From positions 1 through 39,559 of IMG/VR virus record IMGVR_UViG_2565956762_000001: 39,559 nt of DNA. One strand, 5' to 3'. Made by a program: the position numbers and the translations under genes. Under the pieces are notes generated by a model, which searched no databases, was not told the origin of the DNA, and worked only from the letters and a program-made list of their open reading frames with translations. Positions 15,971 through 19,837 of the stretch are shown here, one piece after another. The first letter of the stretch is position 1, and the number at the start of each line of letters is the position of its first letter. The DNA comes from a virus (Duplodnaviria; Heunggongvirae; Uroviricota; Caudoviricetes).

Positions 15971-16613
15971 TGGCAGCAAATACCGAAATATTTGGGTAAT
16001 TGGCGATCTGCACGGATGCTACACGAACCTGATGAAAAAACTGGAGACGATAGGATTCGACACCAAAAAAGACCTGCTTATCTCGGTTGGCGATTTGGTT
16101 GATCGCGGTACAGAGAACGTCGAATGCCTGGAATTAATCACATTCCCCTGGTTCAGAGCTGTACGTGGAAACCATGAGCAAATGATGATTGATGGCTTAT
16201 CAGAGCGTGGAAACGTCAATCACTGGCTGTTTAATGGCGGTGGCTGGTTCTTTAATCTCGATTACGACAAAGAAATTCTGGCTAAAGCTCTTGCCCATAA
16301 AGCAGATGAACTTCCGTTAATCATTGAACTGGTGAGCAAAGGTAAAAAATATGTTATCTGCCACGCCGATTATCCTTGTGATGAATACGAGTTTGGAAAG
16401 CCAGTTGATCATCAGCAGGTAATCTGGAACCGAGAACGAATCAGCAACTCACAAAACGGGATCGTGAAAGAAATCAAAGGCGCGGACATGTTCATCTTTG
16501 GTCATACGCCAGCAGTGAAACCACTTAAATTTGCCAACCAGATGTATATCGATACCGGCGCAGTGTTCTGCGGAAATCTCACATTGATTCAGGTACAGGG
16601 AGAAGGCGCATGA
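15948..16613 (+). CDS. Ser/Thr protein phosphatase (lambda PPase / NinI type)
   Basis: Metallophosphatase motifs GDLHG, GDLVDRG, GNHE; start taken at internal [12 protein letters not shown]…. Confidence 0.9.
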
Positions 16614-17233
16614 GACTCGAAAGCGTAGCTAAATTTCATTCGCCAAAAAGCCCGATGATGAGCGACTCACCACGGGCCACGGCTTCTGACTCTCTTTCCG
16701 GTACTGATGTGATGGCTGCTATGGGGATGGCGCAATCACAAGCCGGATTCGGAATGGCTGCATTCTGCGGTAAGCATGAACTCAGCCAGAACGACAAACA
16801 AAAGGCTATCAACTATCTGATGCAATTTGCACACAAGGTATCGGGGAAATACCGTGGTGTGGCAAAGCTCGAAGGAAATACTAAGGCAAAGGTACTGCAA
16901 GTGCTCGCAACATTCGCTTATGCGGATTATTGCCGTAGTGCCGCGACGCCGGGCGCAAGATGCAGAGATTGCCACGGTACAGGCCGTGCGGTTGATATAG
17001 CAAAAACAGAGCAGTGGGGGAGAGTTGTTGAGAAAGAGTGCGGAAGATGCAAAGGTGTCGGCTATTCAAGGATGCCAGCAAGTGCCGCATATCGCGCTGT
17101 AACAATGCTAATCCCAAACCTTACTCAACCCACCTGGTCACGCACTGTTAAGCCGCTGTATGACGCTCTGGTGGTGCAATGCCACAAGGAAGAGTCAATC
17201 GCAGACAACATTTTGAATGCGGTCACACGTTAG
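16610..17233 (+). CDS. Q: Late-gene antiterminator Q (lambda type)
   Basis: 207-aa [34 protein letters not shown]… recognised as lambda Q; followed by pR'. Confidence 0.95.
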
Positions 17234-17266
17234 CAGCATGATTGCCACGGATGGCAACATATTAAC

Positions 17267-17313
17267 GGCATGATATTGACTTATTGAATAAAATTGGGTA
17301 AATTTGACTCAAC
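17267..17313 (+). promoter_or_regulatory. Late promoter pR' with downstream qut region
   Basis: TTGACT (17267..17272) – 17 bp – TAAATT (17290..17295), directly downstream of Q. Confidence 0.7.
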
Positions 17314-17340
17314 GATGGATAAATGCACTCGTTAAATAAA

Positions 17341-17368
17341 GCCCTGAGTTAATAGCTCGGGGCTTTTT
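17341..17368 (+). terminator. tR'-type intrinsic terminator in the late leader
   Basis: Hairpin gccctgag-ttaata-gctcggggc (one G·U) followed by TTTTT; about 40–65 nt from the predicted pR' start. Confidence 0.55.
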
Positions 17369-17378
17369 GCGTTACAAT

Positions 17379-17466
17379 CACAAAAGGAAGAGCGTTAGGT
17401 GAATCGGCGATACTGCCCCACAAGCCCGTTAATCGATAGAGGTAGACTAGCGCTCTTCCTTTTGTG
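17379..17466. repeat. 16-bp perfect inverted repeat with 56-nt spacer in the late leader
   Basis: CACAAAAGGAAGAGCG (17379..17394) and its exact reverse complement CGCTCTTCCTTTTGTG (17451..17466). Confidence 0.6.
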
Positions 17467-17789
17467 CTGAATTAAGCGAATACCGGAAGCAGAACCGGAT
17501 CATCAAATGCGTACAGGCGTCATAGCCGCCCAGCAACAGCACAACCCAAACTGAGCCGTAGCCACTGGCTATCCTGAATTCATCAGTGATAGTTACGCTG
17601 CGGCCTTCTACACATGATCTTCGTGAAAGCGGGCGGCATGAGGTTGCGCTAACAACCTCCTGCCGTTTTGCCCGTGCATATCGGTCACGAACAAATCTGA
17701 TTACTAAACACAGTAGCCTGGATTTGTTCTATCAGTAATCGACCTTATTCCTAATTAAATAGAGCAAATCCCCTTATTGGGGGTAAGAC

Positions 17790-18113
17790 ATGAAGATGCC
17801 AGAAAAACATGACCTGTTAGCCGCCATTCTCGCGGCAAAGGAACAAGGCATCGGGGCAATCCTTGCGTTTGCAATGGCGTACCTTCGCGGCAGATATAAT
17901 GGCGGTGCGTTTACAAAAACAGTAATCGACGCAACGATGTGCGCCATTATCGCCTGGTTCATTCGTGACCTTCTCGACTTCGCCGGACTAAGTAGCAATC
18001 TCGCTTATATAACGAGCGTGTTCATCGGCTACATCGGTACTGACTCGATTGGTTCGCTTATCAAACGCTTCGCTGCTAAAAAAGCCGGAGTAGAAGATGG
18101 TGGAAATCAATAA
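17790..18113 (+). CDS. S: Holin S (class I, dual-start MKM motif)
   Basis: 107-aa ORF recognised as lambda S; Met1-Lys2-Met3 dual start retained. Confidence 0.95.
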
Positions 18114-19351: not shown

Positions 19352-19837
19352 ATGAATAACTTTGTTGAAATTACCTCAAGAATTGGTCGCATGTACCAAG
19401 ATTTTCTTATAAGTGGAAAGGGGTCTGGCGACATCATAGAGGAAATTGACAAGCTAAGTGCAGAGCTGAGAAGGAATGGGTGTGTTAATTCTATCTTTTT
19501 TGAAACTTTGCTAAAGCAAGGCTTCATGTTTGACATGATTAATTACAACAAAGTCGCACCCAGTGCTTCGCAAAAATCATATGTGTACGTTCTGCATGCT
19601 GAAGATAGTGGGCTAACAAAAATAGGGTTTAGTCGCAGGGTTAATAAACGAATTTCAGAGATATCTCGCATGAGTGGTGGGAAGCTAAATCTAATTGCAA
19701 AGATTCCGGCCGATAGAGAGCTTGAAACCAAATTGCACCAAAAATATTACAACTATAGGTCGCACGGGGAGTGGTTTAGCCTCAATCGTTGTCATTTGAA
19801 AGAGCTAAAAGAAATTCCTGGTAACGAACTGAAATAA
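19352..19837 (+). CDS. Second T5orf172-domain (GIY-YIG-like) protein, between Rz and terminase
   Basis: 161-aa ORF; …SYVYVLHAEDSGLTKIGFSRRVNKRISEISR…GEWFSL… fits the T5orf172 pattern; about 65-aa N-terminal extension of unknown function. Confidence 0.7.
   Translation: MNNFVEITSRIGRMYQDFLISGKGSGDIIEEIDKLSAELRRNGCVNSIFFETLLKQGFMFDMINYNKVAPSASQKSYVYVLHAEDSGLTKIGFSRRVNKRISEISRMSGGKLNLIAKIPADRELETKLHQKYYNYRSHGEWFSLNRCHLKELKEIPGNELK

Follow-up and report, generated by a model that had tools for sequence, protein, structure and literature searches.

The window, as we call the whole 39,559-nt stretch of DNA analysed here, is from a lambdoid phage and contains a late-control region in which all the features described below lie on the plus strand. 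An open reading frame (ORF) at 16610..17233 encodes a lambda-type Q antiterminator of 207 aa; the same frame is annotated as an antitermination protein in lambda, HK97 and mEp213. The late promoter pR' follows at 17276..17316, where a promoter scan found a −35 element (TTGACT, 17276-17281) and a −10 element (TAAATT, 17299-17304) with a 17-nt spacer and with qut between them, and the mEp213 and HK630 records annotate pR'/Qut on this same promoter sequence. Alignment showed that the window and lambda are identical from the end of Q to position +8 of the transcript. By homology with lambda, the pR' start (+1) probably lies at 17311, and a −10-like pause element, AACGAT, would occupy 17311-17316, judging from what is known of lambda. 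Further downstream are an intrinsic terminator (17338..17368), a long stem whose arms lie at 17379..17398 and 17447..17466, a possible second module (17462..17547) and the holin gene S (17790..18113), the first late-operon gene 3' of the leader, whose ORF is annotated as a holin in lambda, HK97 and mEp213. All three features described in the initial annotation, namely pR', the terminator close to it and the inverted repeat, were recovered at the stated places by promoter scan, inverted-repeat search and folding.

The terminator consists of a stem pairing 17338-17351 with 17353-17366 and a TTTTT run at 17364-17368; in the minimum-free-energy (MFE) fold it is a 13-pair hairpin followed by U5. 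A simple terminator scanner made no call at the 17338-17368 hairpin, probably because the fully extended stem makes the loop too short. Termination at this site would give a pR' RNA of about 58 nt, compared with 258 nt for StxS, which is processed to 74 nt. Short constitutive pR' RNAs, including lambda 6S RNA, StxS and IsrJ, are regarded as a by-product of antitermination (PMC7547250). A short leader with an early terminator is a common arrangement and not peculiar to this phage: the segment 17234-17381, covering promoter and terminator, is 96-97% identical to HK97, mEp213, mEp043, HK544, mEp235, HK542, HK140 and others. Having the same pR'/qut and the same early terminator, which folds as hairpin plus U5, the window's leader is by its sequence an ordinary HK97/mEp213-type short leader (the terminator being the tR' equivalent), already sequenced and annotated. 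Relative to lambda, the aligned leader is missing about 137 nt of the 6S RNA body.

The long stem begins 10 nt after the terminator's T-run, upstream of the holin gene and on the sense strand. Its 5' arm, CACAAAAGGAAGAGCGTTAG, and 3' arm, CTAGCGCTCTTCCTTTTGTG, are 20 nt each and 95% complementary, with 48 nt between them; the stem is made of 16 perfect pairs, one T.G pair (G.U in RNA) and three further pairs. The 16-bp perfect repeat reported earlier (17379-17394 with 17451-17466, enclosing a 56-nt spacer) proved exact, and in a comparison over the whole 39.6 kb its extended form, 17379-17398/17447-17466, was the window's longest inverted repeat within 150 nt. The suspicion that such a stem is unlikely to arise by chance was also borne out: by our estimate, about 0.001 perfect 16-mers would be expected within 100 nt (39559 × 100 / 4^16), and the stem is conserved in relatives, contrary to the refuting condition (no conservation in any related phage) that the initial annotation had named. 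Folding, proposed as a check, gave −65.4 kcal/mol for RNA 17311-17480 (z = −5.7, with 0 of 200 shuffles equally stable), and both the terminator hairpin and the long stem were present in the fold. A strong hairpin only 10 nt past a terminator could be a back-up terminator or attenuator that catches read-through of the first one. We consider this highly improbable, and rejected a second intrinsic terminator here: no U-tract follows the stem, after which the next bases are CTGAATTAAG, the scanner called no terminator there, and some members of the family described below sit in tRNA arrays, in which a stop in transcription would do harm. A promoter-like match, TTAATA-18-TACAAT (9 of 12), was also seen at 17349-17378, ending 1 nt before the 5' arm; if active, its transcripts would begin within that arm, but HK97 has not kept it, and such matches are only as frequent as chance predicts.

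Lambda carries a homologous, imperfect hairpin of 75 nt at 44,788-44,862, which reads CACAAC-A-GG-T-AAGAGCATTG, 37 nt, CAGTGCTCTT-T-CC-GTTGTG. It starts 7 nt past the end of 6S RNA, whose end point and 194-nt length in lambda we assume here, and no duplex in the late leader of lambda other than tR' is longer than its stem. The lambda element is also carried by BL21(DE3). As in the window, it is the first structure after the pR' terminator, 5' of S and in the same orientation, and its arms are homologous to the window's (the window's 5' arm to lambda CACAACAGGTAAGAGCATTG). By contrast, the window's stem has neither the bulged A nor the U.U mismatch of lambda's and forms a near-perfect 20-bp duplex, several pairs have changed on both sides, and the interiors (48 nt in the window, 37 nt in lambda) are not alignable. 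Lambda-like sequence resumes at the window's 3' arm, from which the downstream leader is about 95% identical to lambda.

The region is thus a mosaic, HK97/mEp213-type on the left (17234-17381) and lambda-like on the right from the 3' arm, with its junctions at the two arms. The idea of a swapped cassette in the Q-dependent leader therefore stands in part. Compared with lambda, the alignments indicate that only the short leader and the hairpin interior have been exchanged; the stem itself is not foreign, having its homologue in lambda at the same position. HK97 and mEp213, which share the window's pR'/qut and early terminator, showed no such hairpin in the alignment, nor did the late leader of phi80; the element is therefore dispensable. 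Closer to S, at 17634-17670, GGCATGAGGTTG...CAACCTCCTGCC followed by GTTTTG forms a terminator-like hairpin in the leader, about 120 nt 5' of that gene. It is conserved in lambda, HK97 and mEp213, and is a possible alternative location for the RNase III sites reported in lambda.

Scanning viral contigs with a pattern that comprised both arms (20 fixed bases) and left the interior free identified the element in at least 120 contigs, as at least 109 distinct sequences of 72-97 nt. The same pattern was applied to genomes, one per species, and there true members occurred in Enterobacterales only (Serratia, Klebsiella, Superficieibacter, Pectobacterium, Pantoea, Kluyvera, Chania, Rouxiella, Sodalis, Erwinia, Rahnella and Enterobacter). 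The remaining genome matches were chance matches and lambda-identical copies in unrelated assemblies: the 75-nt lambda element was present at 100% identity in Pseudomonas, Psychrobacter, Shewanella, Oceanobacillus, Segatella and other genera (loci L170, L172, L185, L188, L191, L200, L203, L207, L208, L215, L221, L228 and others). These copies, which often lie on low-coverage contigs, some of about 48.4-48.5 kb, look like contamination of public assemblies with lambda DNA. E. coli genomes have the element at a median of one place each.

Members share a stem of about 20 bp around an inner sequence of 40-55 nt, and among the matches listed the interiors fall into about 40 mutually unalignable clusters. 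Because the search pattern fixes many arm positions, much of the apparent arm conservation is there by construction; covariation, however, was seen at positions that the pattern left free. Across the arms, 94% of cells were paired and seven pairs had changed on both sides, a score that none of 500 shuffles reached. Diverged members outside the pattern also have compensated arms, such as AAGGGT/GCCCTT and AATAGT/ACTATT. The stem has three recurrent irregularities: one A bulges from the 5' arm, 33 of 63 arm sets have a U.U mismatch, and 34 of 63 have a U.G wobble. Most members are asymmetric, with the bulged A in the 5' arm only, while some, including the window's, are symmetric. The window's element belongs to this family by its lambda-homologous arms and stem of about 20 bp, and it has the lambda-type placement in a Q-dependent leader, after the pR' terminator and before the holin gene.

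An Rfam search of the element at three sensitivities returned no family, the weak matches being to the terminator hairpin only, and a search of open-access literature for the arms and for the late leader returned nothing relevant. In that literature we found no description of a family of this kind, in which late leaders and tRNA arrays carry a conserved scaffold whose structured cargo can be exchanged. At loci L055, L062, L068, L020, L100 and L010, a small GC-rich hairpin usually lies 1-3 nt 5' of the long stem. In Stx-like leaders the sequence of this pre-stem hairpin is GGCCCTGAGATGTGATTAATAAATCAGGGC; apart from the missing T-run it looks like the terminator hairpin of the window, and the HK97-type tR' may be derived from such a pre-stem hairpin. 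In locus L045, an Rfam isrJ match (60 bits, 2710-2786) lies directly 5' of a family member, a position suggesting that this prophage makes IsrJ as its short pR' RNA.

We then examined gene context, counting the nearest ORF on the element's strand and requiring at least 100 aa for upstream ones. The nearest upstream ORF was a Q antiterminator in 44 out of 72 loci, from four unrelated Pfam families (PF03589, PF06530, PF06323 and DUF1133, the last of which we take to be Q-like), and the nearest downstream ORF was a holin, from six families, in 45 out of 87. Transfer RNA genes lay within 1.5 kb in about 30 loci, often abutting the element. In all 25 asymmetric-arm loci with a tRNA gene within 1.5 kb, by our tally, the tRNAs were on the element's strand. 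On the strand of late transcription, G.U pairs outnumbered A.C pairs by 57 to 12. This excess and the covariation of pairs indicate selection on pairing at the RNA level, and strand, context and G.U excess together argue that the element acts as a hairpin in the transcript and not as a site in DNA. Of the functions that the initial annotation had offered, a structured RNA element or putative processing site is thus best supported, by covariation, strand bias and context.

These data also bear on the view that the element works as DNA, be it a recombination "linker", a MITE-like inverted repeat that aids mosaic exchange or a protein-binding palindrome, with its RNA structure incidental. The window's mosaic junctions do coincide with the arms, breakpoints of cargo exchange lie within arms (see below), and some members, the window's included, have symmetric arms. 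A symmetric-armed subtype adjoins S24-peptidase repressor-like genes and other genes. Most members are, however, asymmetric and always on the tRNA strand, and an excess of G.U over A.C is meaningless for duplex DNA; these three points also disfavour the palindrome proposed earlier. Arms diverge by compensatory change and do not keep their sequence, and inspection of neighbouring genes found no transposase or dedicated recombinase consistently adjacent. The element occurs at about one copy per genome in a fixed context without scattering. We regard a DNA-level role as improbable, and rejected a MITE-like element given the single copy, the fixed context and strand and the roughly 40 unrelated interior clusters.

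The association with tRNA genes is close. In tRNA-array members, the CCA end of a tRNA-Thr is followed after 2 nt by the stem, and in some loci a tRNA-Arg or tRNA-Gly begins with the last GTG of the stem as its first three bases. The window has a possible second module at 17462..17547, an inverted repeat whose lambda counterpart (44,852-44,946) is likewise one. In it, TTGTGCTG (17462-17469) can pair with CAGCACAA (17537-17544), 67 nt downstream, and CCCA follows, an arrangement we liken to an acceptor stem with a CCA end. The module and the 3' arm share GTTGTG-type bases, and the two stems are mutually exclusive at the base. At other loci the slot is filled either by a real tRNA, with an acceptor stem that starts inside GTTGTG, or by a module of the form GTTGTGrTGAAT...CAyCACAAC.

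Such features might mean that the element is a remnant, a decayed tRNA or tRNA-like gene in a tRNA-prone region that now has no function. The late leader is a known site of tRNA genes, tRNAs occupy the equivalent position at neighbouring loci, the 3' arm merges into tRNA acceptor stems, and in the window a second acceptor-like stem with CCCA lies downstream. Against this, ARAGORN found no tRNA gene in the whole window and the Rfam tRNA model matched nothing even at E ≤ 10, which led us to reject a tRNA or tRNA-like gene as a candidate. Stem and cargo helices are, moreover, held by compensatory change across distant phages, and a cargo can be about 88-91% identical between phages and phage-plasmids with unrelated flanks. 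A functionless remnant is thus quite improbable in our judgement.

Interiors have been exchanged between otherwise identical surroundings. In two comparisons, L010/L057 versus L052 and L133 versus L121, unrelated cargo is framed by 150-nt flanks that are 90-99% identical on both sides, and the breakpoints lie inside the arms. As a class, interiors are not unusually stable relative to shuffled sequence (mean z = −0.18 for 40 clusters), and some of the cargoes have T-arm-like GGTTCGAnTCC hairpins. A covariance model built on the core of the window's cargo found no relatives among 100 loci with other interiors; the interiors are therefore really unrelated.

The window's own 48-nt cargo (17399..17446) consists of GUGAAUCGGCGAUA followed by a helix, P2, in which CUGCC (17413-17417) pairs with GGUAG (17441-17445) to enclose a 23-nt loop, CCACAAGCCCGUUAAUCGAUAGA. 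The same core recurs at about 88-91% identity in three settings. The first is lambdoid late leaders, with the window's arms or with consensus arms (L147). The second is E. coli phage-plasmids of about 110 kb (presumably SSU5-like), where the cargo lies between tRNA-Thr and tRNA-Ser within lambda-type arms. The third is Klebsiella phage-plasmids, where it lies 7 nt 5' of a tRNA-Asn and is closed, in place of the long stem, by a 7-bp stem of unrelated sequence with full compensation. Flanks are unrelated between the E. coli lambdoid phages and the E. coli and Klebsiella phage-plasmids, and orientation relative to transcription is constant in all three settings. Across them, the closing stem and P2 are 98.7% paired, with 7 out of 12 pairs changed on both sides. 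By this comparative evidence, the window's cargo is a conserved structured RNA module that appears to be under selection.

Three other accounts of the cargo were considered and rejected. The window has a GTG-started frame of 23 codons, but a stop interrupts that frame in the cargo of the E. coli phage-plasmids, and no ORF is conserved. Candidate pseudoknot pairings of 3-4 bp were found, none of them backed by covariation. As for an origin by copying from elsewhere, when all the loci retrieved were searched by BLAST with the interiors, the only matches were other elements.

Taking these results together, we propose that the hairpin is a putative RNase III-processed site of the Q-dependent late transcript that possibly releases its cargo, a reading to which we give a probability of roughly 0.55. 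The leader would be the untranslated 5' part of that transcript. Constitutive transcription from pR' would end at the 17338-17368 terminator, giving the RNA of about 58 nt; with Q, RNA polymerase would read through and transcribe the 88-nt hairpin at 17379-17466, whose stem of about 20 bp would act as a scaffold and whose inner 40-55 nt would be the member-specific cargo. Host RNase III would cut the stem, just as lambda late RNA is reported to be cut. The lysis-gene mRNA would thereby be separated from the leader 5' of it, or from tRNAs encoded upstream, and the upper stem with its cargo would come free as a small RNA of defined structure.

For Q-mediated lambda late RNA, RNase III processing sites are reported by Daniels, Subbarao, Blattner and Lozeron (Virology 1988), as cited in PMC7547250. 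Since the stem of the lambda hairpin is the longest duplex of the late leader besides tR', it is a likely site for RNase III on the strength of that citation, and the mapped lambda sites may well lie within the 44,788-44,862 hairpin. Several points fit this proposal less well. HK97, mEp213 and phi80 do without the element, the interiors are on average no more stable than shuffled sequence, and much of the arm conservation was imposed by the search pattern. RNase III has weak sequence requirements, and this enzyme therefore leaves unexplained why the arms keep their sequence and why the bulged A, the U.U and the U.G are so conserved. These irregularities could equally be features that prevent RNase III from cutting, and at loci where the element abuts tRNAs, tRNA-processing enzymes could set its ends without RNase III.

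A different reading is that the element is a gene for a stable small RNA whose terminal stem sequesters the ends and shields them from exonucleases and RNase E, with the functional cargo at the tip. The ends would come from tRNA-type processing or trimming, the bulge, the U.U and the U.G would be there to keep RNase III from cutting, and the cargo might, for example, bind a protein or a ligand, imitate a tRNA or act as a decoy against defences. Elements that fill slots in tRNA arrays, packed against tRNAs, are consistent with this, as are the conserved helix irregularities, the T-arm-like hairpins of some cargoes and a cargo kept across unrelated phages with two helices maintained by compensation. 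The window's own stem, however, lacks both bulge and mismatch, and a near-perfect 20-bp duplex is a good RNase III substrate. In addition, lambda late RNA has reported RNase III sites (in the citation given above), neither the window nor lambda has an adjoining tRNA, so that other enzymes would be needed to form the ends, and Rfam gave no match, including to its tRNA and Y RNA-like models. We regard a stable small RNA as the main rival to RNase III processing, possible but less likely.

RNase III processing with possible cargo release also admits a broader extension, which we think unlikely to hold in full. The stem, lambda's included, would be a general delivery and processing scaffold for a large, rapidly exchanged repertoire of small RNAs in temperate phages and phage-plasmids of Enterobacterales, expressed from late operons and tRNA arrays. 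The cargoes, among them the window's 48-nt module, would act in trans on factors of the host or of rival phages, for example as decoys against tRNA-targeting or RNA-sensing defences, and swapping within the arms would reflect diversifying selection.

Several known RNAs resemble the element in part. Phage T7 mRNAs contain RNase III hairpins and some 23S rRNAs contain intervening sequences excised by RNase III, and conserved internal irregularities sometimes direct the cutting. The T7 sites are, like the element, stems of about 20 bp within a long transcript, but they have no sequence relationship to it and no variable structured cargo. The enterobacterial 23S rRNA intervening sequences also have an inner part that varies and is discarded or released, but they lie inside rRNA and are unrelated in sequence. 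Species 1 and 2 RNAs of phage T4 are small, stable, structured non-tRNA RNAs of a phage tRNA cluster; they too are co-transcribed with, and packed against, phage tRNA genes, but they do not combine one conserved stem with variable cargo. Y RNAs and YrlA likewise have a long stem formed by their ends, a conserved bulge and a variable, sometimes tRNA-like cap, but a stem of unrelated sequence. Rfam gave no match to them, no Ro/Rsr gene was found among the neighbouring genes, and to our knowledge E. coli has no Ro/Rsr partner.

Small RNAs have also been described near the lysis genes of lambdoid prophages, downstream of pR'/Q: the anti-sRNAs AgvB and AsxR, and the Pas sRNAs/STnc100 (PMC4104026; bioRxiv 10.64898/2026.05.13.724894). 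AgvB and AsxR are 51-60 nt long, variable at the 5' end and conserved in the 3' part, which ends in an intrinsic terminator (PMC4104026), and Pas sRNAs end in an intrinsic terminator as well (bioRxiv 10.64898/2026.05.13.724894). By contrast, the window's hairpin has no terminator and varies in its middle, and it lies on the sense strand, whereas AsxR is antisense to stx2AB and the anti-sRNAs belong to convergent sRNA pairs. We rejected these RNAs as candidates given their different architecture and the lack of matches to RF02702, RF02703 and RF02076. M3 RNA of phi80, a non-tRNA RNase P substrate, was also rejected: the annotation places it at 36,229-36,288 as the oop homologue, and no such hairpin is present in the late leader of that phage. 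The K-12 cryptic prophages Qin and DLP12, checked for an sRNA over the element, are missing the element itself. Prophage Sp5 of EHEC Sakai has none between Q and the tRNAs, and published Sakai RNA maps are therefore uninformative about it.

For the window itself the outcome is sobering, an ordinary terminator and a hairpin with a clear counterpart in lambda. The short leader was already known and the hairpin is a variant of lambda's; it is the view of a family that we did not find described in Rfam or in the open-access literature searched. Lambdoid late leaders have been studied mainly for Q antitermination, with the hairpin at most a lambda-specific RNase III site, yet it is one instance of a modular family that spans four Q families, six holin families and the tRNA arrays of phage-plasmids. 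As Rfam has no such family, thousands of prophages carry these elements without annotation, among them prophages of pathogenic E. coli, Salmonella and Klebsiella. The family raises the question of what the cargo RNAs are for and why they are exchanged.

Two further observations concern neighbouring sequences. In phage-plasmid and phage loci L002 (2870-3002) and L099 (605-712), the anticodon region of the tRNA genes is interrupted by about 35-57 nt of inserted sequence. One of these genes carries the annotation tRNA-OTHER (133 nt), the other is an Rfam tRNA match spanning 108 nt, and the insertions could be small introns or mark disrupted genes. In the window, an ORF of 161 aa 3' of the lysis genes (19352-19837) matches T5orf172/MUG113 (GIY-YIG-like) domains and is probably a moron or a homing-endonuclease-like gene.
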